Virus record (IMG/VR): IMGVR_UViG_3300020048_000080
DNA: 64,000 nt
Direction: 5' to 3' (one strand)
DNA from: a virus
Lineage: Duplodnaviria > Heunggongvirae > Uroviricota > Caudoviricetes
The notes under the pieces are model-generated. The model saw only the letters and a list, made by a program, of their open reading frames with translations. It was not told where the DNA came from and made no database searches. Both the position numbers and the translations under genes were made by a program. Shown in pieces: positions 10,115 through 52,079 of this stretch (positions are counted from its first letter, which is position 1; the number at the start of each line of letters is the position of its first letter).

Positions 10115-10198
10115 TATACACTATTATTTTTTATTTTTATTATTTTTGATAGATAAAGTTTATATTTTTATATATAAGAAAAAAAGAATATAAAAGTA

Positions 10199-12001: not shown

Positions 12002-12015
12002 AAACATAATAATAA

Positions 12016-13164
12016 ATGGCAACAATAGAAAACAATATAGATGAATTACTAGCATTATTAAACACTTCAGAAACCTTATTAAGATTTAACTCTTCAATAG
12101 AAAAAGAGATCAGTCAACATGGTGGTACTGTGTTATATTCATATAACGATATAATTATTGCATCTGAAATTTCTGATAATTTTTTTGTTGAATTATCAAA
12201 AAATCCATTTATAGAAAATATATACGAAGTACCACTCAAGAAGTACGGAGATGTTGATATGAGTCTAATTGATCAAATTGATGTTTCAAAAATTGGAATT
12301 AACTTGAATGTTACATCTGGTGATACAACTATAATAAGTGGAAACGAATCAGGATCAGGCACAATAAGCTATTCAGGTGATGCACCATTAATAACAAATC
12401 AAAGTTTAACTTTAAATGCTGTTACTAATCAATGGTTCAATTACAAAATAACAGCAAGTGGAAAATTACCAATAAAATTTGAAATAATTCCAAATATAAA
12501 TGGACAAGTATCAATAAGTGGTGATACTATAACAGGATTTAGTTCAATTGATGGTAATTTTAATATCACATTAGTCGCAACAAATAATTTTGGTTTTGAT
12601 AATAAAACTTTAGTTGTACATGTAGTAACACAACCAAAAATAACAAGTCCTCTTATCGCATATGGAACAGTAGGTACTGGATTTACTTATACAATAACAG
12701 AAACTGGTGTTTCATATACATATAGAACATATGGATTACCATCTGGATTATCTCTAACAGGAAATATTATATCTGGTGTATTAAGTTGTGTTGCAGGTGT
12801 TTATAAATTTCCAATTGTTGTGGAAAATTCAAATGGTAGTGATAGTAAAACATTAGAATTGAGAGTTAGTGATACAAGCACTTATCTAAAACCTATTATA
12901 ACAAGTGGTGGTATTGCTAATGGTGAAGAATATACGGATTTCTCATATACTATAACATCAACAGGAACCCCGCCTATCTCATATAGTGTAATTGGTACAT
13001 TACATAATGGTTTAACTTTTAACTCAGGTGATACTATATCAGGAGTACCAACTATAGGTGGTATAAAAAATGTTACACTAAAAGCTACTAGTCCATATGG
13101 AACAACAGAAAAAAATCTTAAAATATCAATAGATAATGCTCATCCACCAGCAGAAGGTGGTTAA
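12016..13164 (+). CDS. protein with repeated putative Ig-like (He_PIG/BIG-like) domains
   Basis: Several roughly 90-aa repeats with 'YGLPSGLSLTGNIISG' and 'TYTIT.TG' patterns typical of putative Ig domains; the N-terminal module is paralogous to the next ORF. Confidence 0.5.
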   Translation: MATIENNIDELLALLNTSETLLRFNSSIEKEISQHGGTVLYSYNDIIIASEISDNFFVELSKNPFIENIYEVPLKKYGDVDMSLIDQIDVSKIGINLNVTSGDTTIISGNESGSGTISYSGDAPLITNQSLTLNAVTNQWFNYKITASGKLPIKFEIIPNINGQVSISGDTITGFSSIDGNFNITLVATNNFGFDNKTLVVHVVTQPKITSPLIAYGTVGTGFTYTITETGVSYTYRTYGLPSGLSLTGNIISGVLSCVAGVYKFPIVVENSNGSDSKTLELRVSDTSTYLKPIITSGGIANGEEYTDFSYTITSTGTPPISYSVIGTLHNGLTFNSGDTISGVPTIGGIKNVTLKATSPYGTTEKNLKISIDNAHPPAEGG

Positions 13165-13179
13165 AAATAATATTTATAA

Positions 13180-13530
13180 ATGCCAACAACATCATTACAA
13201 CGATCAATATTTACAAATTTAACATATGTTGATCAATTAAAAGATCAAATCACTAGAAGTGGTGGTACAATAGTATTTACAAAAGATAATATGATAGTGG
13301 CATCTGAAGTCTCAGAAAGTCAGTATAGAGAATTATTAAAAAGTCCATATGTTGAAAAAATTGATGTTTTACCATTAAAGCGATATGCAAATCAAGGTGT
13401 TAAATATAAAGAAAATGTTAAAATTGTTGATAATACTAGAATAAAAAGTGTGGTAATACCAACACCTCAACCAGTAGAACCAACACCAACACCTCCATCA
13501 ACACCACCAGCAGATCCAGCAGGTTCATAA
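13180..13530 (+). CDS. hypothetical protein sharing its N-terminal module with the upstream Ig-like protein; Pro/Thr-rich tail
   Basis: 'GGTIVFTKDNMIVASEVSESQYRELLKSPYVEKIDVLPLKRYA' aligns with 'GGTVLYSYNDIIIASEISDNFFVELSKNPFIENIYEVPLKKYG' of the upstream protein. Confidence 0.4.
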   Translation: MPTTSLQRSIFTNLTYVDQLKDQITRSGGTIVFTKDNMIVASEVSESQYRELLKSPYVEKIDVLPLKRYANQGVKYKENVKIVDNTRIKSVVIPTPQPVEPTPTPPSTPPADPAGS

Positions 13531-13545
13531 AAATAATAATATTAA

Positions 13546-14193
13546 ATGAGATTAAGTTCACAAAGTAATCAATTTTTATTTAACTTTCCACAAGATTTTA
13601 TTTCAAAAGATGTTGAAGAAAGATTGGCTAGATATATGGAAAAAAATTGGATTCCATATTTAGATCCAATCGCATATATAAATTCAACAATAAAAGAAAT
13701 TGTGTTCCCTAGTGTATCGTATGAAGGTTCAGAACAAACACATAGATTTGGTAAAAAAATAGAATATAAACCAGCAGGAAATATATATGATACATATAAT
13801 AGTTCAATAGATATAACATTAAGAAGTGTAGATTCACAAACTAATTATTTTATGCTTCAACAAATTTTTGCAGAGTACTATAATAATACTAGAAAATATT
13901 ATCTTCCTTGGTTAAGTTTATATATTTTAGATAAAGATGGAGACTATTTATATTCTGTTGTCTTTAGATCTGCATTACTTAAATCATTATCTGAAACTAG
14001 AATGATGTACCAATCTCAAGATGTACAAGAACAAACATTTTCAATAACATTTAAATATAATTTCATGGATGTGTATTGGGATTTAAGTGATAATCCAGAA
14101 GGTAAAAAAGATAACATCTTTCATACAGAAAGTTGGGATCATTCAGGAGATGTTTTACCAACTCAAAGACCACAAAATGATTATAATTTATAA
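13546..14193 (+). CDS. hypothetical protein
   Basis: ORF only. Confidence 0.35.
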   Translation: MRLSSQSNQFLFNFPQDFISKDVEERLARYMEKNWIPYLDPIAYINSTIKEIVFPSVSYEGSEQTHRFGKKIEYKPAGNIYDTYNSSIDITLRSVDSQTNYFMLQQIFAEYYNNTRKYYLPWLSLYILDKDGDYLYSVVFRSALLKSLSETRMMYQSQDVQEQTFSITFKYNFMDVYWDLSDNPEGKKDNIFHTESWDHSGDVLPTQRPQNDYNL

Positions 14194-15484: not shown

Positions 15485-15706
15485 TAAATTATAATGAAAT
15501 GCTTTAATTTCCTTAGGTACCATATTATTATAGGATTCAATCGTATCAACCCAATACTTTTTTTTTGTTTTATATCCATAACGAACCCAGCCCTTATAAG
15601 TTGTTAGAGCAGGACGACCATCAATTATATGGATATATAACCATATACCACCGATCATTTTTCTATAAAATTCTGAACTTGAAAAAATAAAATCAAAGAC
15701 TCTCAT
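15479..15706 (-). CDS. hypothetical protein
   Basis: ORF overlapping the start of nusG by 4 nt. Confidence 0.25.
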   Translation of the reverse strand: MRVFDFIFSSSEFYRKMIGGIWLYIHIIDGRPALTTYKGWVRYGYKTKKKYWVDTIESYNNMVPKEIKAFHYNLK

Positions 15707-16200
15707 TTTTTCTCAATTTGAGTAAAAGTTAAATCTAATGGTATTTCTCTACCAAACATCAAAACAACAACTTTAACTTTTTCCTTTGTATTATCAATAT
15801 CATTAATAGTACCAAGAAAAGAAACGAAAGGACCGTCAATGATTGTAACTTCTTGACCTAGTGAAAAAATATCTGGAATATTTTTCTTTTCATCTTTTTC
15901 AATGATGTTATCAACTTCTTTCTGACTTAATGGTTGTTTTAATATATGTGAAACACCTTTAATATGTTTAAGTCCTGATTCAATATCACTAATATTTTCA
16001 CATTCAACAAAAATATATCCTGGAAAAAATTTCTTATCTATATTATATTTCTTACCATTCCTTGTTTGAACGGCTTTTTCAGATGGAATTAACATTCTTG
16101 AAACGAATTTATCTAATCCATTACGCTTGAATTCAAACATAATAGTATCTCTCATTTTATTTTCTTTACCTGAAACTACTTGTATTACATACCATTTCAT
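15703..16200 (-). CDS. nusG: transcription antitermination/elongation factor NusG-like
   Basis: NGN domain 'KWYVIQVVSGKE', 'KFFPGYIFVE', and KOW motif 'GQEVTIIDGPFVSFLGTI'; collinear with E. coli NusG. Confidence 0.8.
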   Translation of the reverse strand: MKWYVIQVVSGKENKMRDTIMFEFKRNGLDKFVSRMLIPSEKAVQTRNGKKYNIDKKFFPGYIFVECENISDIESGLKHIKGVSHILKQPLSQKEVDNIIEKDEKKNIPDIFSLGQEVTIIDGPFVSFLGTINDIDNTKEKVKVVVLMFGREIPLDLTFTQIEKK

Positions 16201-16285: not shown

Positions 16286-16726
16286 TTAAAATCTACGAAT
16301 AGTAGTTTTACTTTTTGGTGGTGCTATTGGAAGCATAGGAGGTGGAGTTGGTAATGTCATAGGAATATCTGAAAATTGCTCTTCAGGTCTTCTTATTTTT
16401 TCTTCCTTATTGGCATTTTTCTTCTTTTTCTTTTTAAGTTTTTGATTTAAGAATTCTCTCACATAATTATGTGAAAGTTTTAATGATGTCTTTAACTTAT
16501 TCCTTAGTCTGATTTCTGTGCCATCTTTCTTTTTTTTGTAGATTTTACAAATAAACTTATCTCCTTTTTTTGTTATTTCAGCATAATAATATGGTTCAGT
16601 GTTGCCTGTTTTATATCGTATAGCACCATTAGATACTTTAGGATTATATTTTGCACGACCACTAACAAATAAAGAATTGTCTATAATATTATTATTCCAC
16701 GTTTCAAATGTCTTGAGAGTTTTCAT
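16286..16726 (-). CDS. hypothetical basic protein with the 'MKTLKTFE' leader and a Pro-rich C-terminus
   Basis: The track ORF extends to 16834 but the likely start is the internal Met at 16726, which gives the 'MKTLKTFETW' leader shared by many proteins in this window. Confidence 0.35.
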   Translation of the reverse strand: MKTLKTFETWNNNIIDNSLFVSGRAKYNPKVSNGAIRYKTGNTEPYYYAEITKKGDKFICKIYKKKKDGTEIRLRNKLKTSLKLSHNYVREFLNQKLKKKKKKNANKEEKIRRPEEQFSDIPMTLPTPPPMLPIAPPKSKTTIRRF

Positions 16727-16928
16727 ATATCTATATATTAAACTTTTTTGATGATTTTTAATATATATTAAAAATAATTTTATTAAAATGGGAAAAGCAA
16801 TTAAAATTGGAAAGAAGAAAAAAAATCGTGGCAATTTATTAAAAAGAGCAAAAATAATACAAAAAAATACTGAGATTCTTAAAAGATTAAAAAAACAAAG
16901 AGAAGAAGCAGAAAAAAGTATAACCTAA

Positions 16929-17204
16929 ATGAAAGATTCCTATTTAAAATTAAGAGTAACAGACGAAGAGTATATAAAATTTCAGAGTGCATGTGAGAAT
17001 AAAAACAAAACCATGAGTGAAGTTCTAAGATACTTTATCACGTCATATAGTAATACAGAACATTTAATTTTATTAGATGTTGATAGTGATACTCTTAAAA
17101 ATACCACAGAAGTATGTAAAGAAAAAAAGATAAAATTTAATGATTTAGTTAAATTCCTTTTAGAAAAAGCTATTAAAAATAAGGATAAATTAAATTTTAA
17201 ATAA
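16929..17204 (+). CDS. hypothetical small protein
   Basis: ORF only. Confidence 0.3.
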   Translation: MKDSYLKLRVTDEEYIKFQSACENKNKTMSEVLRYFITSYSNTEHLILLDVDSDTLKNTTEVCKEKKIKFNDLVKFLLEKAIKNKDKLNFK

Positions 17205-17788
17205 TGTTATTTGTAGAAGCATACAAACGAAGATTTGATTTACCAGAAGATTCCATTGTAATTGATACAACATCAAGATCAGGTAATTGGACAAGAGGTT
17301 TTTCTCCTTTTATTATCCCAGGTGGTTATTTATATGATGGTTATTATGCTAAAAGTGTAGAAAATGCTTGGCAAGCAAGTAAAGTGTTTCCTCAATTTGT
17401 AGATGAAAATAATAATCCAACACCTGAATATTTTACTTGGGCAAAAAATATTTGGACTTCAAGTTATGCTTATAGATATCCAATGGATAAAGGTATAAAG
17501 CCTCTTTATTCTTGGTGGAATGGTCAAAAATATGATTATGTAGAAGCAAGGAAAAAAATATATATTCCTTTATATAGTAGAGGAGTTATAAAAACAAAAG
17601 CATTTGAAACTTTATTAGATATTTATAGAAAAACTGATAAAGATATTTATTTAGTTGATTTTGATGGTTATAATCATAAAAAAATGGGATTAACTTTGGT
17701 AGATGTTGCGAATAATCCAAAAAGAAGTATGGGACACGCATTTGTGATTTATGATTTATTACAAAGATACAAAAAAGAAAGCCTTTGA
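17204..17788 (+). CDS. NADAR (YbiA/DUF1768)-like domain protein
   Basis: 'GFSPFIIPGGYLYDGYYAKSVENAWQASKVF' matches the NADAR core 'FSNF..P...DG..Y.SVEHYFQAQKF'. Confidence 0.5.
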   Translation: MLFVEAYKRRFDLPEDSIVIDTTSRSGNWTRGFSPFIIPGGYLYDGYYAKSVENAWQASKVFPQFVDENNNPTPEYFTWAKNIWTSSYAYRYPMDKGIKPLYSWWNGQKYDYVEARKKIYIPLYSRGVIKTKAFETLLDIYRKTDKDIYLVDFDGYNHKKMGLTLVDVANNPKRSMGHAFVIYDLLQRYKKESL

Positions 17789-17812
17789 TTTCTCAAAGGC
17801 TTTTTTTGTTTT
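17775..17812. terminator. bidirectional intrinsic terminator (gcctttga-tttc-tcaaaggc)
   Basis: Hairpin plus TTTTTTT, between convergent genes. Confidence 0.55.
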
Positions 17813-18028
17813 TTATATCCATTCCTCCTCTTCTTGTATAGAGGGATCATATTTTAAACCAAGTTCATTGATTTTCTCATAAACATCATTTTTATTTTTT
17901 GTTTCAAACAGCTCATTAACTGTTTCAAATTCACCTTCAACCTGTTTGAGGAATAATACATCTTTTGTATCAGCATCCCAAACCAACTTCCATGGCAACT
18001 CATTGTTAGCCTTTTTGATTTTTTCCAT
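17813..18028 (-). CDS. hypothetical small acidic protein
   Basis: ORF only; a longer overlapping ORF, 17854..18141 (-), looks less coding-like. Confidence 0.3.
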   Translation of the reverse strand: MEKIKKANNELPWKLVWDADTKDVLFLKQVEGEFETVNELFETKNKNDVYEKINELGLKYDPSIQEEEEWI

Positions 18029-18249
18029 AAATTTTTAAATTTATTTTTTTGTGAAATTAAAGATTGAAATATCAACCTTTTTGATAAAAGAAAATATAAA
18101 TAAAAGATCATTTTCACAAAAGTATATATTATTTTTACCAAGTCAAAAATATTCCAAAAATAGTTAATATACTTATAATCAAATGTTTATATATATTAAA
18201 AAATAAAAAATACATAATTTAATATATAATAAAAAAATAATTTCAATTA

Positions 18250-18816
18250 ATGGCAAAATTATATTTTAGATATGGTGCTATGGGTTCAGGTAAAACTATA
18301 GATTTATTAAAAACATCTTATAACTATAAAGAGAGAGGTCAAAAAACTTTAATATTAACTTCTATTATAGATAATAGATATGGATCGAATAAGATAAAAT
18401 CAAGAATTGGAATAGAAGAAACTGCTGTTAGTGTATCATCCACCGATTCTATTTTAGATATTTTTAAATCTTACTCTGATATTAATTGTGTGTTGGTGGA
18501 TGAAGTACAATTTATGAATAAAAAACAAATATTAGAACTAAGTGAAATAGTTGATTGTTATGATATTCCTGTTATTGCATATGGCTTAAAAAGTGATTTT
18601 AAACAAGAACTATTTCCTGGTTCTGCGGCTTTATTGAGTATCTGTGATTGTATAGAAAATATACCTGTTATTTGTTGGTGTGGTAAAAAAGCAACAGTAA
18701 ACGCAAGAATATCTGATAATAAGGTAATTTATAATGGAGAACAAATCTTAATAGGTGGAAATGATCAATATATTTCATTGTGTAGAAAACATTGGAAAGA
18801 AGGTAAAATAAAGTAA
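18250..18816 (+). CDS. tdk: thymidine kinase
   Basis: P-loop 'YGAMGSGKT', 'VLVDEVQF', and a C-terminal Zn ribbon 'CWCGKKA...CRKH'. Confidence 0.85.
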   Translation: MAKLYFRYGAMGSGKTIDLLKTSYNYKERGQKTLILTSIIDNRYGSNKIKSRIGIEETAVSVSSTDSILDIFKSYSDINCVLVDEVQFMNKKQILELSEIVDCYDIPVIAYGLKSDFKQELFPGSAALLSICDCIENIPVICWCGKKATVNARISDNKVIYNGEQILIGGNDQYISLCRKHWKEGKIK

Positions 18817-18825
18817 TATTAAAAA

Positions 18826-28249: not shown

Positions 28250-29005
28250 ATGAAGAAAATAATGGCTATTAGTGATTTACATGGTAGAACTTGTTGGAAA
28301 GATTTTGGTGATATAAAATTTTTACTAACAGCAGAACCAGATGCTGCTGGGTTTGGTCCTTATACACCAGATTTTGATTTATATGTATTTCTTGGTGATT
28401 ATACTGATTCTTTCACAGAAACAAATTCAACCATAAAAGAAAATTTATTAGAAATAATAAAATTCAAAACTTTATACCCAAAAAATGTTATACTACTTTG
28501 GGGTAATCATGATGTTGAATATTATATAAATTTACCTTGGCTTAAAATGAATGGTGGAATAAGTGGATTTCGTCCAGAAATGCACTATGATTTATACGAT
28601 ATTTTTAATACAAATAAAGATAAATTTCAAGTAGCCTTTAAGGTTAATAATTATTTATTCACACATGCTGGCGTTCACTTTGGTTGGTATCATTATGTTT
28701 TTACAAAAGCTATAAAGGGAATGGGTATGAATGAAATGGATATAGCTGATCAATTAAATGAAGCTTTTAAACATAATGTTAAATGTTTATTTGATGTAGA
28801 TTGGTATCGTGGTGGTAGTAAAAAAGTTGGTGGACCTTTATGGTGTGGTAAACAATTAATGGTAAAAAAACCATTAAAATATTGTCACCAAATAGTAGGT
28901 CATACTCCAGTGGATGATTTTCAAAAAATAGTAATTGGAAACTCCAGTATAACTTTTTGTGATGTGTTGCACAAGAAAAATGAATTTTATGAAATAAATA
29001 TTTAG
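28250..29005 (+). CDS. calcineurin-like metallophosphoesterase (Ser/Thr phosphatase or ApaH-like)
   Basis: Motifs 'ISDLHG', 'GDYTD' and 'GNHD' in the canonical order. Confidence 0.7.
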   Translation: MKKIMAISDLHGRTCWKDFGDIKFLLTAEPDAAGFGPYTPDFDLYVFLGDYTDSFTETNSTIKENLLEIIKFKTLYPKNVILLWGNHDVEYYINLPWLKMNGGISGFRPEMHYDLYDIFNTNKDKFQVAFKVNNYLFTHAGVHFGWYHYVFTKAIKGMGMNEMDIADQLNEAFKHNVKCLFDVDWYRGGSKKVGGPLWCGKQLMVKKPLKYCHQIVGHTPVDDFQKIVIGNSSITFCDVLHKKNEFYEINI

Positions 29006-29007
29006 TT

Positions 29008-29463
29008 ATGAACAAAGATGAACTTAAGGATCTTTTTGAAGAGCCGTTAGCAGAATTAGATGAATTCACAAAAGAAATTCAGAAAATAAAAAAATTAATA
29101 AATCTTATAATTGAAAATTTTGATTTATTAAAAGATGATATAACTGAAGAACAAATAGGTGAAGTATCATCTGATATTAATATAAAAATGAGTAAAATAA
29201 TGTCACTTATGAAAGATGTTATATCTGATTCTAAATTATTAGAATCATTTATTCATGAAATTAAATTATTAAAAAGGAAAAGAAATAAAAAGTTAGGTAA
29301 GAAAGATGATATTGATAAGGATGATTTATTGGAACTTATTAAAAAATTAAAACAAAATTTTCCACCGCCATACACACAACAACCCTACACACAACCCTAT
29401 ACACAGCCATACACACCAAAAAAACATCCATATTTACCACCAGATTGGAATATTCAATTTTAA
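29008..29463 (+). CDS. hypothetical protein with C-terminal PYTQ repeats
   Basis: 'PPPYTQQPYTQPYTQPYTPKK'. Confidence 0.3.
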   Translation: MNKDELKDLFEEPLAELDEFTKEIQKIKKLINLIIENFDLLKDDITEEQIGEVSSDINIKMSKIMSLMKDVISDSKLLESFIHEIKLLKRKRNKKLGKKDDIDKDDLLELIKKLKQNFPPPYTQQPYTQPYTQPYTPKKHPYLPPDWNIQF

Positions 29464-29523
29464 TTAAACTTTTTAAAAAATATACAACTATATAAAAATA
29501 GATAAATTCAAATCTTTTTCGTT

Positions 29524-29760
29524 ATGAAAGATATAAAACTAATAGAAGCAATAGTTGTAGCATATTATCGTGAAAATAAAGACGATATAAAAATAGAAAG
29601 TTTAAAAGAACTTTTAATAGATTCTCTAAATATTGAGATTGATAGTGTTATTTTAGAGAATAATACTATCAACGTCTATTACGATCCAGAAAAAATAAGA
29701 AAAAAATTAACATTTCAATTTCATAATGATAAAATAAAAACAATCTTAAAAAGAAAATAA
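29524..29760 (+). CDS. hypothetical protein
   Basis: ORF only. Confidence 0.3.
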   Translation: MKDIKLIEAIVVAYYRENKDDIKIESLKELLIDSLNIEIDSVILENNTINVYYDPEKIRKKLTFQFHNDKIKTILKRK

Positions 29761-29761
29761 C

Positions 29762-30392
29762 ATGGGCAAAAGAGGTAGGAGAAAAACCAATAAAGAATAT
29801 GCTGTTAGATTAAATCATCCAGAATTAGGTACATTTTATTATCAATATAGCAATAATGAGTATTGGAATAATAATGCGAAATTTTATTTTACTCAAAATC
29901 TTTCCAAAGTTGACACTTGGAAAACTATGAAGTATGTTGAAAAACAAATAATTACCATAAAAGATAATTTAGATAAGAAAAAAGCAAAAATTCTTTTATA
30001 TTTAGGTGATCAAATTAGTAATGAATTAAAAACAAATCCTCGTATTATTCAATCTAGGAAGAGATATTATTATGAAATTACTGTTGTTACTTCTAAAACA
30101 CATTTAGATAAAGCAAAGGATAATCTTGAAAGGTTGAGTGAAACATTAATTGCTGATTCTAAAATTGTTACTAAAATGATTAAAAAATCACAAATACTTG
30201 AAAAAGATTTTATGTCATTTTTTACTAAATTATATAGTGATGTAAACCTTTATAGAAAAGAACATAGTTTTTTAGAAAAAAATAAAAATATAGATACAAT
30301 TAATTTAGATATTGTAGATGCTTCTTATAGCTTCAGGTTATTAAAACTTAAAACTTTAAAAACCGTAGAAAGTGATGAAATAAATGAAATAG

Positions 30393-30409
<17 letters not shown>
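29762..30409 (+). CDS. hypothetical protein
   Basis: ORF only. Confidence 0.3.
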
Positions 30410-32228
<1,819 letters not shown>

Positions 32229-32232
<4 letters not shown>

Positions 32233-32834
32233 ATAATCTCTTTGACTTTATCTAATTTAGTAGTTGGAAATATCCATCCAGCTTTCTTTTCACCAGTTTT
32301 TGGATCCGTCAAATAACGATTATATCTACAGCCTAGTGCAATCAATTGATCTTTAATATTTTTTGTACCTAATCCAAAAAGTGCATATGATTTATTTGAG
32401 TATTGTACTAATTCTATATCTTTTTCAATTTTTGGTTCTTTAAAAGTCGCAATAGGTTTGATGTGTTTTAATTCTCTCTTTGGCTTTTCTGGTTTTAATA
32501 ATTTTATTAAATCACTCAATGACATTTTATTACCTTCTTTATCTTCCCAAAATCTAGAAAATTTTTGTTGCCGTGAATGTTTAGTTAATAATGTTCTAAC
32601 TAATGCTAAATCAGCTTTTTGTAATGTTCCAATATTAACAAATTCAAGTTGTTTTGGAAATGTTCCGGCACCAATTCCACTTTTTGTATGAACACTATTG
32701 ATTTTTAAATATAATGAATCTTTATCTAATAATATCTCAGCTGTGATAGTAATAGCATCATATTCCCAACTCCAATAAGATTGATTTGTTGCAATAACCT
32801 CATAGTTACCAAAATCTTCAAATATTTTTATCAT
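32229..32834 (-). CDS. hypothetical protein (leader MIKIFEDF)
   Basis: ORF; the N-terminus resembles the family leader. Confidence 0.35.
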
Positions 32835-32971
32835 ATATTATATATAAATTTTTTTAAACTTTTTTTAAAAATTATTATAGATATAAGTGGGACATAAATA
32901 AGATATATAAATGGTCCCAATATATAGATAAAGCCATAAAAGCAAAATTAATTTAGAGTTAAATTAGAAAC

Positions 32972-33016
32972 AAAAAACCTTCCCCTAAATTGGATAGAAA
33001 ACGGGAAGGTTTTTTT
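32972..33016. terminator. bidirectional hairpin terminator (ccttccc...gggaagg flanked by A- and T-runs)
   Basis: 7-bp GC-rich stem with a 20-nt loop, A6 on the 5' side and T7 on the 3' side. Confidence 0.4.
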
Positions 33017-33029
33017 AATTTAAATTATT

Positions 33030-33254
33030 ATGATAACAATAAATGTAAATAACAAACCCTTCTTGACACTAGATGTTCCAAAAGAACTATTGGAAAAGAA
33101 GCGCAGAAAAATAAAAAATATTATTATACCATATCTTTATCAGATTGAAACTGCTGAGATTAAATTGGAGATAAAAAATAAAATTCTCAAGTTATTTATT
33201 AAAGATTTAAGAAAACAAAAACTTGAAAAAATAGATGCCTCCCGTATTTATTGA
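33030..33254 (+). CDS. hypothetical small protein (C-terminus LRKQKLEKID)
   Basis: ORF; the conserved junction motif is described in findings. Confidence 0.3.
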   Translation: MITINVNNKPFLTLDVPKELLEKKRRKIKNIIIPYLYQIETAEIKLEIKNKILKLFIKDLRKQKLEKIDASRIY

Positions 33255-33510
33255 AGATAAATTTTATTGTACTGAATGTAAATGGAATCGTTTATATTCT
33301 ACCAGGTTAGTTATAAATGGTTGTATAAGTCCACATGTGATTGAGTATAAAGGAATACCAGCAAAATATGGTGTCAGTTCATGTATTAGTAATGTAATAC
33401 CATCAAGTTTAGAAACTCCAATTTGGTGTCAATATTTACAAATTGAATTGAGAAAGCAAAAACTTAAAAAAATAGATGAATTTAAAAGACAAACTAGAAC
33501 AAGCATATGA
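33235..33510 (+). CDS. hypothetical Cys-rich small protein (C-terminus LRKQKLKKID)
   Basis: ORF in the +1 frame relative to the upstream ORF, with the same junction motif. Confidence 0.3.
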   Translation: MPPVFIEDKFYCTECKWNRLYSTRLVINGCISPHVIEYKGIPAKYGVSSCISNVIPSSLETPIWCQYLQIELRKQKLKKIDEFKRQTRTSI

Positions 33511-34186
33511 ATTGAATAACACAATAGATTTTATTAAAAAAGATCCAATTCAAATTCCACATAAATTTTCTAAAAAAGAAGATATTGAAATATCCGGATT
33601 TTTAACATCCATATTAGCTTTTGGTAAAAGAGAGATAATTATAAATAAAGCGAATGATTTTCTTCAAAGAATGGATAATCAACCATATAAATATCTTATG
33701 AATGGTAATTATTCAAATATGAATGGATTTGTACACAGAACAATTAATAGTGTGGATTTTATTTTTTATTTAGAATCCTTAAAAGAAATTTATGAAAATG
33801 GTGGATTAGAAAAACTTTTTTCAAATGATATTGAGAAGAGTTTAATTCAATTCTGGAAGGTTTTCTTCTCATTAGAACACGAAAAAAGGTCCGAACGACA
33901 TATCTCAAACATTGAAAAAGGATCGGCTGGAAAGAGATTAAACTTCTTTTTAAGATGGATGGTGAGAAAAGATAATATTGATTTTGGAATTTGGAAAAAT
34001 ATTGATACAAAAAATCTTTTTATTCCATTAGATGTTCATGTTGGTAATATTGCAAGAGAATTAAATATAATTACAAGAAAACAAAATGATTGGAAATCTG
34101 TGGTGGAGATAACCAATCGTTTAAAAAAATTGGATCCCAAAGATCCAATTAAATATGATATTGCATTGTTTAGCTTAGATTTTTAA
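33476..34186 (+). CDS. hypothetical protein
   Basis: ORF in the +1 frame relative to 33235..33510. Confidence 0.35.
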   Translation: MNLKDKLEQAYELNNTIDFIKKDPIQIPHKFSKKEDIEISGFLTSILAFGKREIIINKANDFLQRMDNQPYKYLMNGNYSNMNGFVHRTINSVDFIFYLESLKEIYENGGLEKLFSNDIEKSLIQFWKVFFSLEHEKRSERHISNIEKGSAGKRLNFFLRWMVRKDNIDFGIWKNIDTKNLFIPLDVHVGNIARELNIITRKQNDWKSVVEITNRLKKLDPKDPIKYDIALFSLDF

Positions 34187-34890
34187 AAATATTCAAAAGA
34201 TTTCAAATGTTCAAATTGATACTTATCCTTAATGTTTTTAATTTTAGTTTTTACTGCATCAATTTCTTTTTCTGTTGATTCTCTATCAGTATGAGTTTTT
34301 CCTGGATTTTGCTTTTCCCATTCTTTTATTCTATCCATTGTTCTTTGATAACCTGCTAGTGTGTCTTTTAATAGAATATATAATCTTCTCTTATTTTGAG
34401 TTGTTGGGTCTTCATTTGATTTAGGCTCTGGTTGTTTAGGTTTAGGGTTATATCCATAATTATATTTAGCATTATAATCATCATAATCATCATTATAGGA
34501 TTTTTTCCTATAACCATGCTTTCTACCAATCTCTTCAAGAACATCTTTCATTTCCATTATATCATCATGAATAGATTTACTAACTCTTCTTCCTCCTATT
34601 TTTTCAACCATTTGTTTCCAAAGATCAATAGAAAGATCTAAATAATAATCAAATTTTCTTTTATCTATGATTTCTATATTTTCAGATAATACTTCTAATA
34701 ATCCAACAACACTATATAAACTTGATACTGCGTCACTTACATCAATACGACCTGATGTTGTTAGTTCAGTTAATATTTCACCAACTTTTGTCATTTTTTT
34801 GAGCATGTTGACTCTTTTTTTCTCTTTCACCTTCTCAGGATTGGGAGAAAAAAAATTACCAAATAATTCAAATGTTTTTATATTTTTCAT
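34183..34890 (-). CDS. hypothetical protein (leader MKNIKTFE; C-terminal domain paralogous to that of 36095..36976)
   Basis: C-terminus 'RRLYILLKDTLAGYQRTMDRIKEWEKQNPGKTHTDRESTEKEIDAVKTKIKNIKDKYQFE'. Confidence 0.4.
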   Translation of the reverse strand: MKNIKTFELFGNFFSPNPEKVKEKKRVNMLKKMTKVGEILTELTTSGRIDVSDAVSSLYSVVGLLEVLSENIEIIDKRKFDYYLDLSIDLWKQMVEKIGGRRVSKSIHDDIMEMKDVLEEIGRKHGYRKKSYNDDYDDYNAKYNYGYNPKPKQPEPKSNEDPTTQNKRRLYILLKDTLAGYQRTMDRIKEWEKQNPGKTHTDRESTEKEIDAVKTKIKNIKDKYQFEHLKSFEYF

Positions 34891-34902
34891 TTTTCTATTT
34901 TT

Positions 34903-35280
34903 TTAATCTTCTTCTAAGAATTCAAGTTCATCATCATCATCAATATTAACCAATTTGATATCTTGTTCATAACCAACAAATTCTTTTAATTCCTGAAGTT
35001 TTTCATAAAAATCAGATTCGTCTAAATCATCTAACATATCAGCAATTTCTCCTTTTGACATTTCATAATCTAGTTCTTCATCTTGATATCCTTCTAATCC
35101 ATTTTCATCTCCATTCGTATCTAAAATTTCTAAAATTTGATCAATTGCATCGTGTTTATATTCCCAAAAAGATTCATGACTACCATCAATTTTGACTTCC
35201 CATTTATTTTCATTTTCATCATCATCATCTAAAATATTCTCTTTGATGAAATTAAATTCATTAAATTTCTTAAGTTTCAT
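34903..35280 (-). CDS. highly acidic small protein
   Basis: D/E-rich sequence, for example 'DDDDENENKWE', 'DTNGDENGLEGYQDEELDYE' and 'IDDDDELEFLEED'. Confidence 0.35.
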   Translation of the reverse strand: MKLKKFNEFNFIKENILDDDDENENKWEVKIDGSHESFWEYKHDAIDQILEILDTNGDENGLEGYQDEELDYEMSKGEIADMLDDLDESDFYEKLQELKEFVGYEQDIKLVNIDDDDELEFLEED

Positions 35281-35328
35281 AAAAATTAATTAGTTTTCTT
35301 TTATATATAAAAATAAAAACATATATTT

Positions 35329-36060
35329 GTGAAATATTTAGAAAAATTTAAAATGATTGAAAATAAGGAACATATAACTTTTAATAAAGAAGATGCTGAT
35401 TTAATTCAGAATTCTTTATATATTGATATGAAAGAAGATGGTGTTGAAAAAGATGATGTAAACTGGATTTATAATGAACTAGAATTAATCAAAAAAGATG
35501 CTGACAATTCTTGTCTTTTCCATATAATAAGAAACTATTACAAATTAACAGAAAGAAATACTATAATTAGATTAGCAATAAAGTTTTTTGATTTAAAATA
35601 TAAAGATGTTATTGAAAAATTCAAAAAAGATAGGAAAAAAGAATTTGCATCATCAAATAATTTTGATACTGAAATTGAATCTGAATTTGTTAACCTTCCA
35701 TATGGTGATAGCACATTAAGTGTACCAAGAAGAATAGGTCATAATTATATTCCAATTAAAATTCTACCATTAGAACAATTAAACACTAAATTTTCAAAAC
35801 ATAGAAGATTAAAAGTTTTTCATCATAAAGGTTTAGAATGTATATCTTGTCCTAAAATAGGTGAATATTTAATTGCAGCAAGAGATAGAGGTGGCGCAAT
35901 TCATATTGATTTATATACAAAAGATTTTGAATTAATGACTATTGATCATATTAAACCAAAAGGAAAAGGTGGAAGTAATGATATAGAGAATCTTGATCCA
36001 ATGTGTCAAACCTGTAATTCAAAGAAAGCAGATACCTACGAAGAAGAAAATATATTATAA
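35329..36060 (+). CDS. HNH endonuclease (leader MKYLEKFK)
   Basis: C-terminal HNH motif 'DHIKPKGKGGSNDIENLDPMCQTCNSKK'. Confidence 0.55.
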   Translation: MKYLEKFKMIENKEHITFNKEDADLIQNSLYIDMKEDGVEKDDVNWIYNELELIKKDADNSCLFHIIRNYYKLTERNTIIRLAIKFFDLKYKDVIEKFKKDRKKEFASSNNFDTEIESEFVNLPYGDSTLSVPRRIGHNYIPIKILPLEQLNTKFSKHRRLKVFHHKGLECISCPKIGEYLIAARDRGGAIHIDLYTKDFELMTIDHIKPKGKGGSNDIENLDPMCQTCNSKKADTYEEENIL

Positions 36061-36094
36061 TTTTTTAATATATACTAAAAAATATTTCAATTTA

Positions 36095-36976
36095 ATGATT
36101 AATGAAGGTGTTTTAAGAAGTCCAAAATGGTTAAGAAATTTTGCTGATTTTGAAATAAATACAGGTGAAGATATTAAAGGTGAGCCGTCAGAAAAAAGAA
36201 AGCGTCAATTAGAGAAAGAGCGTAAAATAAAAGAAGAAGAGAGAAGGATAAAAGAAAAAGAAGAAAGAGAAAGAGAAAGAGAAGAAGAGAGAAAAAGGAA
36301 AGAACAAGAGGAAACTAATATTTTGGTTGATGAATTAATCAAAAATGCAATTTATTTTATAAATAATTATTATAAAAAATGTAACGTAAAAGTAGATGCA
36401 TATAATAATGAAGTTACAATAAGTCACAGTAATCTTAAATTTGATGGTAAAGATTTAAAATTTGAAATCACATTAGAAAATTCAGTTGTAATTCCTAAAT
36501 TTAGATGCTCATTTACTTATAATGGATACATATATACATCCAAATTAAGCGGATTTAATTATACTGATTTCAAAATATTTATACTTCAAGTAATATATCC
36601 ATTTTATTCTAGTGGTGGATATAAATCAAATTCTAATAGTTATGAGGAGTCTAGTAGAAAAGCACGTGAAGAAGAAACTAAAAGAAAAGCAAATGATACT
36701 TATGAAGAATATAAAAAAAGATATTCTTCATCTAATGAAACCGAAGAAGTAAAAAAGAGAAGAAGATTATATAATCTTCTTAAAGAAACTCTTGATGGGT
36801 ATTTAAGAACAATGGATAGAATAAAAGAATGGGAGAAAAAAAATCCAGGAAAAAAACACACCGATAGAGACTCAACAGAAAAAGAAATTGAAGCAGTAGA
36901 AACTAAAATTAAGAATATTAAAGATAAATATAAATTTGAATCTTTAAATCATTTAACTTCTTTTATATTTTATTAA
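36095..36976 (+). CDS. hypothetical protein with an E/R/K-rich low-complexity region; C-terminal domain paralogous to that of 34183..34890
   Basis: The track ORF starts at 35993 inside the HNH gene; the likely start is Met 36095 'MINEGV'. C-terminus 'RRRLYNLLKETLDGYLRTMDRIKEWEKKNPGKKHTDRDSTEKEIEAVETKIKNIKDKYKFE'. Confidence 0.35.
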   Translation: MINEGVLRSPKWLRNFADFEINTGEDIKGEPSEKRKRQLEKERKIKEEERRIKEKEEREREREEERKRKEQEETNILVDELIKNAIYFINNYYKKCNVKVDAYNNEVTISHSNLKFDGKDLKFEITLENSVVIPKFRCSFTYNGYIYTSKLSGFNYTDFKIFILQVIYPFYSSGGYKSNSNSYEESSRKAREEETKRKANDTYEEYKKRYSSSNETEEVKKRRRLYNLLKETLDGYLRTMDRIKEWEKKNPGKKHTDRDSTEKEIEAVETKIKNIKDKYKFESLNHLTSFIFY

Positions 36977-37209
36977 AAGGGTAGGATATTAGTAGCAGTT
37001 GAAACAGTATAATCAATTTTATTTTTATTTAAAATCTTTTCTAAATCTTTTTGATCTTCTGGAACAATTTCCATAACAAATCCTGCTTTTCTATTATGTA
37101 AATAAAAAGTTATTGTATTTTGACCATTTTCTGCGGGATCAAAATTATATTTTCTTTCTTGCTCATTCCACTTTGATGTTATTTCATTCATTTTATCTAA
37201 ATGTTTCAT
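36973..37209 (-). CDS. hypothetical small protein
   Basis: ORF only. Confidence 0.3.
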   Translation of the reverse strand: MKHLDKMNEITSKWNEQERKYNFDPAENGQNTITFYLHNRKAGFVMEIVPEDQKDLEKILNKNKIDYTVSTATNILPF

Positions 37210-37213
37210 ATTG

Positions 37214-37741
37214 TTATAATAATTTTTTTAACCGTTCTATATATTTTTCTAACTTTTTTTTAAATTTTGTACTAGAAATTTCTCCAACTTCCATTGATAA
37301 TTCCTCCAATTCACTACCGATATCTTGTAATTCATCACTTGCTATCAATCCCCTAACATCAACATAATCAACATCTTTTACAATTTCATCTTTTGCAATT
37401 TCTTCTATTTTTTGTTTTTCTTCTCCTGGTTTACATTTAAAATAGTAATAATAATCATCTGATCCCCTTCTGTATTTAGACATTTTGATACCATATTTAT
37501 CTTCAAAGTAATTTACAAAATCTGAACCACCTTTTTCTGAAAATAAATTTTGATAATCAACTCTATATTTACCTGTTTCTTCATCAACATCTTGATATTT
37601 TTTATTATATCTTTTTTCATCATCTTTAAACCTAATGGCAATTAAACCACTCCTATATTTAGGTCTGTAATTTTTTTCCATACGAAGATTATGATTATAT
37701 AAAGGATTTTCTACAGTTTCATATTTTCTTACATGCTTCAT
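37214..37741 (-). CDS. hypothetical protein
   Basis: ORF only. Confidence 0.3.
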   Translation of the reverse strand: MKHVRKYETVENPLYNHNLRMEKNYRPKYRSGLIAIRFKDDEKRYNKKYQDVDEETGKYRVDYQNLFSEKGGSDFVNYFEDKYGIKMSKYRRGSDDYYYYFKCKPGEEKQKIEEIAKDEIVKDVDYVDVRGLIASDELQDIGSELEELSMEVGEISSTKFKKKLEKYIERLKKLL

Positions 37742-37761
37742 GCTTCTATATATTAAATTTT

Positions 37762-38061
37762 TTATAGATTATATTTTTCTGCATCTTTTTTCATAAAATA
37801 ATTTTCTAAATCTTTGTCTGATACTTTTTTATATCTATATCTAGCATTATCTGTTGAACCTGGTGGATCAGTACTTTCTAATTCGTTTACTATATATCCA
37901 CTATAATGTATATCTGGTGGTCCAATTTTACGTAATACTTGAAATATATCGGGATATTCTTCACGTACAGGTGATATACATTTCAAATAAATATAATCAC
38001 CAACTTCTGGTGTGTAGTTGAAATCATCATCCTTATCTTCATATTTTTTAATATATTTCAT
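37762..38061 (-). CDS. KYNL-family small protein (MKYIKKYEDKD..., VGDYIYL, AEKYNL)
   Basis: Family motifs. Confidence 0.45.
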   Translation of the reverse strand: MKYIKKYEDKDDDFNYTPEVGDYIYLKCISPVREEYPDIFQVLRKIGPPDIHYSGYIVNELESTDPPGSTDNARYRYKKVSDKDLENYFMKKDAEKYNL

Positions 38062-38079
38062 AAAATATATATTAATTTT

Positions 38080-40578: not shown

Positions 40579-40602
40579 TTTAAATAAATTAATATATAAC
40601 AT

Positions 40603-41461: not shown

Positions 41462-41749
41462 ATGAAAAAATTTTTCAATGACTTTATAAACGAAAAAAAG
41501 GAAGTTTATAAATTTAAAAAAGGTGATTATGTAAAATACGACATAAATTACACTAATAATAACTATTCAGATAAAATCTTTATGATCGTCAATAGGCAAA
41601 AACTAAGAAAAAATCAAATAAATAATTCAACATATTGTATTTATACAATTGATGCTATTGACGGAAGTAAATCTGTAAGTTCTGTGTATGGATGGGAATT
41701 ACGAGAATTAACTGATTTTGAACTTGCCACATTAAAATATAATTTATGA
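41462..41749 (+). CDS. KYNL-family small protein (KGDYVKY, C-terminus TLKYNL)
   Basis: Family motifs. Confidence 0.45.
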   Translation: MKKFFNDFINEKKEVYKFKKGDYVKYDINYTNNNYSDKIFMIVNRQKLRKNQINNSTYCIYTIDAIDGSKSVSSVYGWELRELTDFELATLKYNL

Positions 41750-42017: not shown

Positions 42018-42452
42018 TTATATTTTGTCAAAACGATATTGAGTTTCTTGCTGTGAATACATGTATGGATATATTGTACATGTAAATAAAAAATTGCCAA
42101 ATTTATCATAATAAGTGTACATAAAAGTAACATCATAGTCTCTTAAAATTGACATACTTTCTGTATTTTTTACAGAACTTGAAAGAGAGTTTAACATATA
42201 TGATTTCATAGTTTCAAGCATTTGAGGACTATAATCACTTTTAGATTTTAGTAAAGTATATCTGTACTCAATAGTTTTAGGTTCATATACATTAACCATA
42301 TCCAATCTGGTTATCTCGTCAACCATAGTTGGACAATTTGCATTAACAGAAACCGAAGCTTCCTTTAGAAAAGAATAAATTTCCGAAGTACTTTGCGAAT
42401 ATGAAAATATACTAGCAAACACGAAAGTAATAATAAAAAAGAGTTTTTTCAT
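42018..42452 (-). CDS. secreted protein (signal peptide MKKLFFIITFVFASIFSYSQ)
   Basis: Bacteroidetes-style signal peptide. Confidence 0.4.
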   Translation of the reverse strand: MKKLFFIITFVFASIFSYSQSTSEIYSFLKEASVSVNANCPTMVDEITRLDMVNVYEPKTIEYRYTLLKSKSDYSPQMLETMKSYMLNSLSSSVKNTESMSILRDYDVTFMYTYYDKFGNFLFTCTIYPYMYSQQETQYRFDKI

Positions 42453-42567: not shown

Positions 42568-43011
42568 ATGAAAAAATTATTTTTAAGTTTTATTATTTTA
42601 TTTTGTATCACCTTGAGTGCTATTTCTCAAAGTTTTATTGGTCAATCATCTACTTCTATTAAGAATAGTGTTTTAAAAGAGTATAGTAGTGGAATCTCAA
42701 ATGTAAGTGATGAAAGTAATATTTTAACTATTTCTTTCCAAGATGGGCATTCTGCTTTGTATTTTACAAATTCAAATGATTTATGTAAATATTATACTTT
42801 ATGCTATCCTATAGCTAATTATAATACAATGAGAAACATGTTACAAACTAATTTTACTAAAGTATATAATTACGAAAAATGGTATTATAAAGATGGTGAA
42901 TACTATATTTACTATAAAATAGTGATAGATAAAAGTGGTACAGTATTTTGGATATTTGTATATCCTGATTTTTATGAAAGTGAAATTGATCAGATAATAA
43001 ACTCTTTATGA
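42568..43011 (+). CDS. secreted protein (signal peptide MKKLFLSFIILFCITLSAISQ)
   Basis: Signal peptide; divergently transcribed from the previous gene. Confidence 0.4.
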   Translation: MKKLFLSFIILFCITLSAISQSFIGQSSTSIKNSVLKEYSSGISNVSDESNILTISFQDGHSALYFTNSNDLCKYYTLCYPIANYNTMRNMLQTNFTKVYNYEKWYYKDGEYYIYYKIVIDKSGTVFWIFVYPDFYESEIDQIINSL

Positions 43012-43076: not shown

Positions 43077-43433
43077 TTATAAATTATATTTTTCAGCATT
43101 TATAAGTGTTTCTAATTCTCCCTTATTATCTGACCAATATTTGAAATTTTGTGTTGTGTAGTCCGATGTATTGTTTCTTCTAAAATAATTAGTTTTTGAA
43201 AAAGATAAAATTTCTGGTATATTTTCAAATTTAACAATGTATATCTGACCACTAGGAGTTTTTAAACCATTATGTTGGTCTTTTATATCTACTATTTCTC
43301 CTATATTTTCACTAACAAATCTATTATACACATCCAATGCTTGACTATCTCCTCTAGCGTTATATATTATCACATAATCACCAAGATTAGGTTGTGTACT
43401 GACTGTTTCAAATATTTTAAATCTTGTTATCAT
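43077..43433 (-). CDS. KYNL-family protein (MITRFKIFETV, LGDYVII, KYWSDNKGEL, C-terminus AEKYNL)
   Basis: The track ORF extends to 43484, but the family alignment favours a start at Met 43433. Confidence 0.45.
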   Translation of the reverse strand: MITRFKIFETVSTQPNLGDYVIIYNARGDSQALDVYNRFVSENIGEIVDIKDQHNGLKTPSGQIYIVKFENIPEILSFSKTNYFRRNNTSDYTTQNFKYWSDNKGELETLINAEKYNL

Positions 43434-43511
43434 CATCTTATATATAAAATTGAAAAATATTTTTTTATATGATAACTTTTTCATACTTTTGTACTACCAA
43501 ATATAAAAACT

Positions 43512-52016: not shown

Positions 52017-52079
52017 TCTCACCTACTATTTAAAATAGTAGAAATAAGATATTTTTAATAATTAATATATACAATAAAA

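Follow-up and report, generated by a model that had tools for sequence, protein, structure and literature searches.

A recurrent N-terminal leader on proteins of an uncultured huge phage is probably a post-translational recognition tag

Why should a CCA-adding tRNA nucleotidyltransferase begin with the same few residues as a series of small phage proteins that otherwise do not resemble it? This question is raised by the stretch of DNA analyzed here (the window, 64 kb; IMG/VR record IMGVR_UViG_3300020048_000080), which is densely packed with genes in prokaryote style and has a GC content of ~25%. A sequence-only reading of the window had reported that one N-terminal leader (e.g., MKYLKTFE) recurs on unrelated proteins across more than 20 kb, between positions 16286 and 37741. 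It had proposed either a common post-translational fate, such as capsid packaging or a shared protease site, or a conserved translational start context. The N-termini it quoted (16286, 34183, 32229, the nucleotidyltransferase at 23448, and the KYNL-ending genes at 22811-26071) are all present at these positions.

The motif K-x-[FY]-E is found within the first 11 residues of 12 of the 104 window genes. The expected count was 0.19 based on its rate at internal protein positions (P about 2e-18), 0.70 based on genome codon usage, 1.23 based on N-terminal codon usage, and 1.63 based on within-gene shuffles. In 1000 simulations, the number of such genes peaked at 6–8, with 8 as the maximum, and at internal protein positions the motif occurs at the background rate. 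The recurrence across more than 20 kb was thus confirmed, and it lies above what AT-rich codon bias produces: a chance origin in the ~25% GC genome, where MK- starts are common, was rejected by all four null models. The leader is therefore a genuine, non-random shared N-terminal element.

With variant forms included, 19 window genes carry the leader, and they span 16286-43436. At residues 4–8 or 5–9, the leader has the conserved core [ILF]-K-x-[FY]-E, and around this core it takes either the form MKY[IL]Kx[FY]E or the form MIT[KR]FK[IL][FY]E. These forms swap among orthologues, as P0002, which is 56% identical to the product of 22811-23152, has MKYIKTYE in place of MITEFKIFE. KYNL is also the C-terminus of eleven of the 19 carriers, and a twelfth has MYNL there. 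All-against-all BLAST identified a true paralogue core of four genes (starting at 22811, 23149, 25515, and 43077), and the remaining carriers are alike at both termini only. Outside the KYNL-ending genes, the strict motif is present in just 4 of 93, and the claim of unrelated proteins therefore holds for a minority; most carriers form one family with a common K[YF]N[LI] tail. The range first given also proved too narrow, as carriers lie inside it but also at 37762-38061, 41462-41749, and 43077-43436, and four or five further leader genes follow to the right of the window on the same contig. The carriers of the window are listed below, where "box" denotes a promoter-like TWATATATA element.

16286..16726 (-), 146-amino-acid (aa) basic protein; leader MKTLKTFE (MKTLKTFETW), without a KYNL tail
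20708..21712 (-), 334-aa protein; variant leader MITLFENF, a weaker match
22512..22814 (+), first gene of the array; TTG start, MITEFFNF at the N-terminus and MYNL at the C-terminus; box 19 nt upstream
22811..23152 (+), KYNL core-family gene; MITEFKIFE and KYNL; ATGA overlaps with its neighbours
23149..23451 (+), KYNL core-family gene; MITKFKIYE and KYNL
23448..24638 (+), CCA-adding tRNA nucleotidyltransferase; MITKFKIFE, within the 12-residue leader MITKFKIFENLS
24635..24982 (+), array gene; MKYIKLFE and KYNL; middle part unrelated to the core family
24979..25518 (+), array gene, 179 aa; MKYLKTFE and KYNL; unrelated middle part
25515..25799 (+), KYNL core-family gene; MKYLKTFE and KYNL; product modelled with AlphaFold2 (AF2)
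25796..26071 (+), last array gene; MKYLKTFE and KYNL; no coupled downstream gene
31894..32232 (-), 112-aa protein ending in KYNL; its leader is the variant nearest to the capsid-targeting sequence (CTS) of phage T4
32229..32834 (-), 201-aa protein; MIKIFEDF, without a KYNL tail; box 3-4 nt upstream
34183..34890 (-), 235-aa protein; MKNIKTFE
34903..35280 (-), 125-aa very acidic protein (isoelectric point, pI, 4.05; Asp/Glu runs); variant leader MKLKKFNEF
35329..36060 (+), HNH endonuclease (Pfam HNH, 6.7e-11); GTG start, KYLEKFK, no Glu8; leader-like only
37214..37741 (-), 175-aa protein; MKHVRKYE; ends in KKLL like the CCA-adding enzyme
37762..38061 (-), 99-aa protein; MKYIKKYE and KYNL; own box
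41462..41749 (+), 95-aa protein; variant MKKFFNDFINE and KYNL
43077..43436 (-), KYNL core-family gene; true start MMITRFKIFE, and KYNL; box ends 1 nt before the ATG

The start assignments of several of these genes were supported independently. For 43077-43436, an internal start of the long open reading frame was adopted because the BLAST alignment runs from residue 18 and the database gene call P0003 begins with MMITRF. In 16286-16726, the box TAATATATA is located 4 nt before the ATG. The box TTATATATA is located 19 nt before the GTG of the HNH gene (35329) and agrees with that start; membership of this endonuclease among the carriers nevertheless remains doubtful, as its leader-like KYLEKFK requires the GTG start and lacks Glu8. 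Two genes flank the HNH gene divergently (34183-34890 on the minus strand and 36095-36976 on the plus strand) and share a C-terminal domain of ~100 residues (57% identity, E = 1e-37), with the leader present on the former and absent from the latter. The L017 orthologue of the acidic protein 34903-35280 begins with MGLKKFDEF; this acidic protein is also reminiscent of DNA-mimic anti-restriction proteins. No match in Pfam or PHROG was found for the basic protein 16286..16726 or for the 334-aa protein 20708..21712.

Eight of the carriers form a tandem array (22512-26071) with ATGA stop/start overlaps, with a single-base gap instead at the last junction. The gene for the CCA-adding enzyme lies in the middle of this array. 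Its internal Met13, directly after the 12-residue leader, corresponds to the canonical start, and the Pfam PolyA_pol domain begins at residue 35. This enzyme lacks the KYNL tail and ends in KKLL, as does another tail-less carrier, 37214-37741, on the opposite strand. The residues F-K-K-L-L are 68–98% conserved at the C-terminus of the CCA orthologues, and KKLL may be a second tail variant.

The leader and tail extend far beyond the window. The exact 24-nt form of the leader is present in more than 120 IMG/VR loci on contigs of 4.5–676 kb with 19–34% GC. Among the open reading frames of these loci, 524 of 1818 encode the leader, and about three quarters of these carriers end in K[FY]N[LI]. When 1145 unique proteins of related loci were classified, 184 carried leader and tail together, 104 had a leader without the tail, 69 had a tail without the leader, and 788 lacked both. 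After trimming of the termini, the 288 unique leader proteins fell into 171 clusters, 140 of them singletons. In one 20-kb stretch of a 531-kb contig (ERZ27297473 k141_239578), 40 of 56 genes have the strict leader, 47 the tail, and 34 four-base overlaps occur; on a 54-kb NCBI metagenome contig, the leader is found on 30 and the tail on 36 of 58 genes. A profile search collected 604 family members, and the best 120 of these showed no Pfam domain and all but one were unnamed or annotated as "hypothetical protein." The KYNL proteins gave nothing below E = 0.01 against Pfam-A and PHROGs, the family was not found among 50,697 deposited phage genomes, and the junction pattern had a single match in 185,579 species genomes, in a 5.7-kb contig of a Muribaculaceae metagenome-assembled genome (MAG). 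Searchable literature contained no relevant description of the leader motif or of such tandem families of huge phages. Frameshift-split family genes (L122:5716-6079, 17235-17859, and similar) consist of a leader-bearing half and a KYNL-bearing half, which implies rapid birth-and-death turnover within the arrays. The leader and the K[YF]N[LI] tail thus define a very large, fast-diversifying, undescribed family of ~100-residue proteins, whose genes lie in tandem arrays with translational coupling in AT-rich, huge, myovirus-like phages.

Whether selection acts on the peptide or on the underlying nucleotides was assessed by codon usage in three data sets: non-seed leaders from the IMG/VR loci, two arrays found via protein homology, and the window. 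Synonymous codons in leader and tail track the background in all three. Lys2 is AAA in 88–89% of cases (background 87–89%), Glu8 is GAA in 88–96% (background 87–89%), and Ile4 uses ATA/ATT/ATC at 50/40/10 in the leader and at 44/49/7 in the background. Only two deviations were observed, namely Thr6, which is ACA in 24 of 24 cases (background 51%), and the last codon, which is set by the ATGA overlap. Apart from these two, the nucleotide conservation beyond codon background that a start context would entail was not observed, and a nucleotide-level element (promoter, ribosome-binding site, or recombination site) was rejected. Because the synonymous codons inside the leader are at background, selection acts on the peptide. 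Neighbouring paralogues in an array also have identical leader codons, the rare CTA included, and local duplication or conversion is therefore operating as well.

In an alignment of 111 family members, K5 is conserved in 98% and E8 in 96% of the sequences, position 7 is always F or Y, and the K-Y-N-L tail is 92–100% conserved; the termini are among the most conserved columns. In the AF2 model of the 25515..25799 product (overall predicted local distance difference test score, pLDDT, 80.7), an SH3/Tudor/KOW-like barrel (residues 18–77) is followed by a helix (residues 80–91), residues 1–6 have pLDDT <50, and the last four residues average 59. The model of the CCA-adding enzyme has a pLDDT of 90.6 overall and <50 at residues 1–7. 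The leader is joined to the fold by a linker of variable length. A role of the leader as part of the fold was rejected, as it is unplaced in both models. A peptide that is conserved yet unstructured on two unrelated folds has the signature of a linear recognition motif. Of the two explanations offered by the sequence-only reading, the post-translational fate therefore fits better, and the start context is disfavoured by the synonymous codons. The leader is probably a post-translational recognition tag of some kind. It does not look like a Sec, Tat, or lipoprotein signal, as it lacks a hydrophobic core of about 7–15 residues behind a basic n-region: polar linkers come directly after its 8 amphipathic residues. 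Genuine signal peptides of other window proteins differ from it (e.g., MKKLFFIITFVFAS).

The tag is modular, as it also precedes enzymes. Carriers with recognizable domains include the CCA-adding enzyme, ART-PolyVal (alone or with Tpt1), phage lysozyme, and ankyrin-repeat proteins. Another carrier is NT5C (N-terminus MKHLILFETF), and a further one is the following:

L107:8708-10606 (-), leader-bearing, NADPH-dependent flavin mononucleotide (FMN) reductase/flavodoxin-like protein, split by an intein with a LAGLIDADG domain

Orthologues of the CCA-adding enzyme (n = 104, full-length, 50–100% identity) retain the N-terminal extension in about 100 cases, and it is absent in only a few. An Ar-x-x-Ar-[ILVM]-x-E start (Ar, aromatic residue) is found in 46 of the 104, e.g., MITRFIEFITE and MITKFTQFITE, and a K-[ILVM]-Ar-E start in 29, the remainder having mostly other leader-like forms. 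Forms that resemble the T4 CTS and leader forms thus interchange among these orthologues. The pattern [IL]-x-E occurs within the first 14 residues in 72% of the CCA orthologues and 59% of the KYNL core proteins, compared with 1–18% in control windows. The orthologues of 16286-16726 (50–63% identity) likewise retain MKNFKTFE, MNNIKTFE, MKKLKNFE, or MITIFE. Because the leader is kept in both orthologue sets, its presence on the CCA-adding enzyme is no one-off accident.

What might read such a tag is suggested by a contig (L128) that is identical to the window over 12,540 nt (100% identity) and reaches 7.8 kb farther right. About 7 kb right of the window, it encodes a prohead protease of the T4 gp21 family, next to a short protein with repeated CTS-like units:

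L128:19345-19917 (-), Peptidase S77, T4 gp21-family prohead protease (Pfam PF03420, 37.2 bits, 2.9e-9; gathering threshold 27 bits; phrog_207, 4e-23)
L128:18943-19338 (-), 131-aa protein adjoining the protease; starts with MGIINYAEFIAE and has a collagen-like Gly-x-x stretch

The 131-aa protein contains three tandem T4-CTS-like units, YAEFIAE, YTEYIAE, and YTEYLAE ([FY][IL]AE). This gene pair lies outside any canonical portal-scaffold-capsid module, and the search for S77 relatives in IMG/VR and in the collected related loci gave no lead. On another contig, L073:13460-13780 (-) begins with MKNIKSFEDFIAEN, in which the leader is fused directly to a T4-like FIAE motif. The nearby presence of a T4-type, Glu-specific prohead protease accords with the shared protease site that the sequence-only reading had listed among its options.

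In phage T4, the CTS is a ~10-residue peptide, MKTYQEFIAE, which docks internal proteins to the prohead core and is removed by gp21 after Glu (PMC8442874, PMC3012670, PMC5694885). It is the sole conserved part of diverse T4 internal proteins (PMC3012670), and Alt, an ADP-ribosyltransferase (ART), is treated like these internal proteins. For ARTs such as Alt and those of polyvalent proteins, packaging and injection are known or predicted (PMC5512222). CTS propeptides have 10–20 residues, and the proteases of T4, phiKZ, and SPN3US cut after Glu (PMC5694885). The leader is like the T4 CTS (IPI-III, Alt) in that it has ~10 residues at the extreme N-terminus, is amphipathic with aromatic and acidic residues, and ends in Glu. 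It is also found on otherwise unrelated, fast-diversifying accessory proteins, in a genome that encodes a gp21-family S77 protease. Unlike the CTS, which occurs on a handful of T4 proteins, the leader has tens to hundreds of carriers per genome, and these carriers have an extra conserved C-terminal tail and are not notably basic. The relation between the leader and the T4 CTS is therefore described here as analogy.

A second comparison is offered by phiKZ, 201phi2-1, and SPN3US, which are also giant myoviruses with an S77-type protease that cuts after Glu, and in which conserved N-termini of diverged paralogues were proposed to be CTS-like (PMC5694885). Their propeptides differ from the leader, as they mostly have 80–130 residues with (S/A/G)-x-E sites and occur on about 8–19 proteins, whereas the leader has only 8–12 residues and is far more widespread. 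Outside phages, Plasmodium PEXEL and mycobacterial PE/PPE are short N-terminal signatures on hundreds of diverse parasite proteins with a common trafficking fate; organisms, machinery, and sequences are all different, and the likeness is conceptual only. The cargo-loading peptides of encapsulins are short, conserved, disordered, and terminal, and send unrelated enzymes inside an HK97-fold shell. Unlike the leader, they are usually C-terminal, have another sequence, are bacterial, and are not removed by a protease. The multigene families of African swine fever virus and the gene accordions of poxviruses are tandem diverging paralogues in variable genome regions with birth-and-death turnover, but they have no two-ended linear motif and their N-terminus is not lent to enzymes.

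We tentatively favour the explanation that the leader is a capsid-targeting or propeptide tag analogous to the T4 CTS, at a confidence short of even. The leader is a clade-specific, flexible linear peptide outside the fold, placed ahead of unrelated enzymes as well, and it would act after translation, with a partner encoded by the phage reading it. Through this amphipathic peptide with its aromatic and acidic residues, a carrier would be docked to the core of the prohead, the gp21-family S77 protease would possibly remove the leader after the conserved Glu, and the diversified small proteins and a few enzymes would be packaged with the DNA and delivered into the host. Post-translational fate is the best-supported class of explanation, with capsid targeting as the leading candidate within it.

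Several observations weigh against capsid targeting. The pattern (I/L)-x-E is present in only 32% of all leaders, with P3 mostly T or K; the commonest form, MKY[IL]KTFE, lacks this canonical T4 pattern, and only minority leader variants resemble MKTYQEFIAE. With a position-specific scoring matrix built from the main leader type, the T4 CTS scored -15.6 and ranked 320 among 857 non-leader N-termini, and direct homology of the main leader to the T4 CTS was rejected. A general N-terminal [FYW][IL][AS]E signal was not enriched in the related loci either (3 observed, 3.1 expected). The CCA orthologue counts are not independent, as these sequences are phylogenetically related. The carriers are very numerous for capsid cargo, with 17% of the genes in the window and up to 70% in 20-kb arrays, and the CCA-adding enzyme, NT5C, and the FMN reductase look like ordinary cytoplasmic enzymes. 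The marked basicity of T4 internal proteins is not seen in the carriers, whose pI values have a median of 5.95 and a distribution too broad to discriminate them, and their conserved C-terminal tail has no T4 counterpart and is unexplained by capsid targeting. No cultured relative was found among the 50,697 phage records.

A broader proposal, which we consider rather unlikely, is a two-ended address code, in which the N-terminal phi-K-x-[FY]-E (phi, hydrophobic residue) together with K[YF]N[LI]-COOH would mark one cargo class, either an injectable effector library loaded in bulk into the giant capsid or an intracellular scaffold built by tail-to-head peptide zippers.

A degron or stability tag seems doubtful. 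In that case, the leader, and perhaps the tail, would be recognized by the phage ClpC-ClpP, and the carriers would be short-lived or removed at a set time. The window encodes both components, as follows:

6383-8926 (+), ClpC-like unfoldase with Clp_N, two AAA modules, D2-small, and an IGF ClpP-docking loop at residues 689-691
53383-54066 (+), ClpP (Pfam, 1.9e-76)

Judged by these domains, the phage has a complete ClpC-ClpP protease. Terminal degrons for Clp proteases are well established (e.g., lambda O and ssrA), exposed unstructured terminal peptides are what AAA+ proteases use, and a degron on the cytoplasmic CCA-adding enzyme or NT5C is easier to rationalize than packaging. On the other hand, no likeness of the leader to known Clp recognition motifs was noticed, although no formal comparison was made, and co-occurrence of the Clp genes with the family across contigs is not in evidence. 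The convergence of the CCA variants on the T4-CTS-like F-[IL]-x-E would also be left unexplained by a degron.

It is similarly doubtful that the leader is part of an expression cassette with no post-translational role, in which the KYNL-stop/ATG-leader junction would serve as a unit of translational coupling and early elongation where the host initiates without Shine-Dalgarno sequences. Such a cassette would be spread and refreshed by duplication, unequal crossing-over, and gene conversion in the arrays, and enzymes would have gained it through recombination into them. The 4-nt ATGA overlaps (34 in L125), the identical leader codons of adjacent paralogues including the rare CTA, the turnover evident from frameshifted fragments, the position of the CCA gene inside an array, and the exclusive use of ACA at Thr6 all fit this explanation. 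Shine-Dalgarno-like tracts were also not visible in the start-codon upstream contexts inspected. A TWATATATA box is found ahead of many start codons at a spacing of 1–7 nt or 17–25 nt, with 42 occurrences in the window compared with 12.9 ± 4.1 in shuffles. Examples are the following:

10168-10176, 16732-16740, 18220-18228, 22483-22491, 37747-37755, 38066-38074, 40590-40598, and 52063-52071, TWATATATA boxes

This box is probably the general promoter element of the phage, and the 1–7 nt spacing implies leaderless or near-leaderless mRNAs. Several observations weaken the cassette. The other synonymous sites are free, 9 of the 19 window carriers are uncoupled and are each preceded by a promoter-like box, and no gene is coupled downstream of three KYNL genes. 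Moreover, 27% of the tails end in TAA or TAG, presumably highly expressed structural and core genes have no leader, and the CCA extension persists down to 50% identity through several sequence variants.

Distinctly unlikely is a role of the two termini as docking handles, where phi-K-x-Ar-E and K-Ar-N-phi-COOH would pair in trans or attach to one scaffold; family members would then assemble into heteromers, to which leader-only enzymes would be recruited. The two motifs co-occur strongly in the counts given above, both termini are highly conserved yet of low confidence and unpaired in the monomer model, and their sequences suggest complementary charges and aromatics. However, the co-occurrence is also expected from common descent, there is no precedent, AF2 did not pair the termini in cis, and genome effects made it uninformative to ask whether leader position 7 covaries with tail position -3.

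Very improbable is that the leader simply opens the fold of a single homologous domain: true paralogy and an SH3-like barrel do apply to many carriers, but the leader is unplaced in both the barrel and CCA models, is followed by a variable linker, and occurs on unrelated folds. Chance from AT-rich codon bias has next to no probability, given 12 observed against 0.2–1.6 expected genes and the exact 24-nt form in more than 120 viral loci.

The tag, for which we thus retain capsid targeting as the tentative explanation, belongs to an uncultured, AT-rich, huge myovirus-like phage, of which the window is a piece. This assignment is based on its gene content, on the baseplate and tail genes of related contigs, and on the gp21-family protease of the identical contig. 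The only DNA match of the window among the 50,697 deposited phage records was to purA of two 735-kb uncultured-phage records, and exact-sequence look-ups toward the left and right contig flanks had no yield. The window also encodes a multi-S1 protein, thymidine kinase, a hybrid histidine kinase, PurA, peptide deformylase, NAD-dependent DNA ligase, and RNA ligase, in addition to the ClpC-like AAA+ protein, ClpP, and the CCA-adding enzyme, and the gene below:

15703-16200 (-), NusG

Genes for a gp6-like baseplate wedge, a gp5-like hub, and tail fibres were found on related metagenomic contigs. Although the ankyrin repeats, the NAD ligase, and the tRNA-Leu cluster brought a eukaryotic giant virus into consideration, this origin was rejected in view of NusG, S1, peptide deformylase, ClpCP, the ATGA-overlap operons, and the T4-like baseplate, tail, and head genes. 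The tRNA cluster consists of five tRNA-Leu genes at 62366-63572 (anticodons TAA twice, AAG, TAG, and CAA), and no other tRNA genes were found in the window. Most KYNL genes have TTA-Leu as their final sense codon.

Four genes in a row at 10199-14193 (+), encoding proteins of 600, 382, 116, and 215 aa, are preceded by a promoter-like box and had no match in Pfam or PHROG; they may be structural. The 600-aa protein has an apparent counterpart with a similar N-terminus on related contigs (L079; no alignment was made), and the 215-aa protein, encoded by the last of the four genes, has the C-terminus DYNL. Secreted or lipoprotein-like proteins are encoded at four further sites:

L128:17931-18899 (-); window 42018-42452 (-), 42568-43011 (+), and 27416-27676 (+), proteins with signal peptides such as MKKIFLLLVMFISMFSFAQQ and ...LLLVGC

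One of these proteins has 322 aa and is of low complexity, rich in Tyr, Pro, and Thr. Signal peptides such as MKKIFLLLVMFISMFSFAQQ resemble what we take to be the Bacteroidota type. This look of the signal peptides, together with the single match in the Muribaculaceae MAG, hints at a host in Bacteroidota.

The feature is thus much larger than first noted: a vast, undescribed huge-phage family with a two-ended peptide code that is also lent to enzymes. With over 600 members detected, neither a Pfam nor a PHROG entry, and no presence in deposited phage genomes, the family merits a curated profile. If the leader is an address label, it would provide a sequence-based means of recognizing a large part of the unannotated genes in uncultured huge phages and would assign one common fate to up to 70% of the genes in some 20-kb stretches. 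If capsid targeting is true, a T4 principle known for a handful of proteins would be widened to a whole diversified arsenal, and a natural short tag would be available for loading foreign proteins into large capsids. A two-ended code, if true, would label roughly a hundred or more diversified, small, binder-like proteins together with selected enzymes, and would be a so far undescribed phage equivalent of PEXEL and similar effector-export signatures. Should the tag serve phage ClpCP turnover or self-assembly instead, it would represent a new regulatory or structural principle for giant phages.

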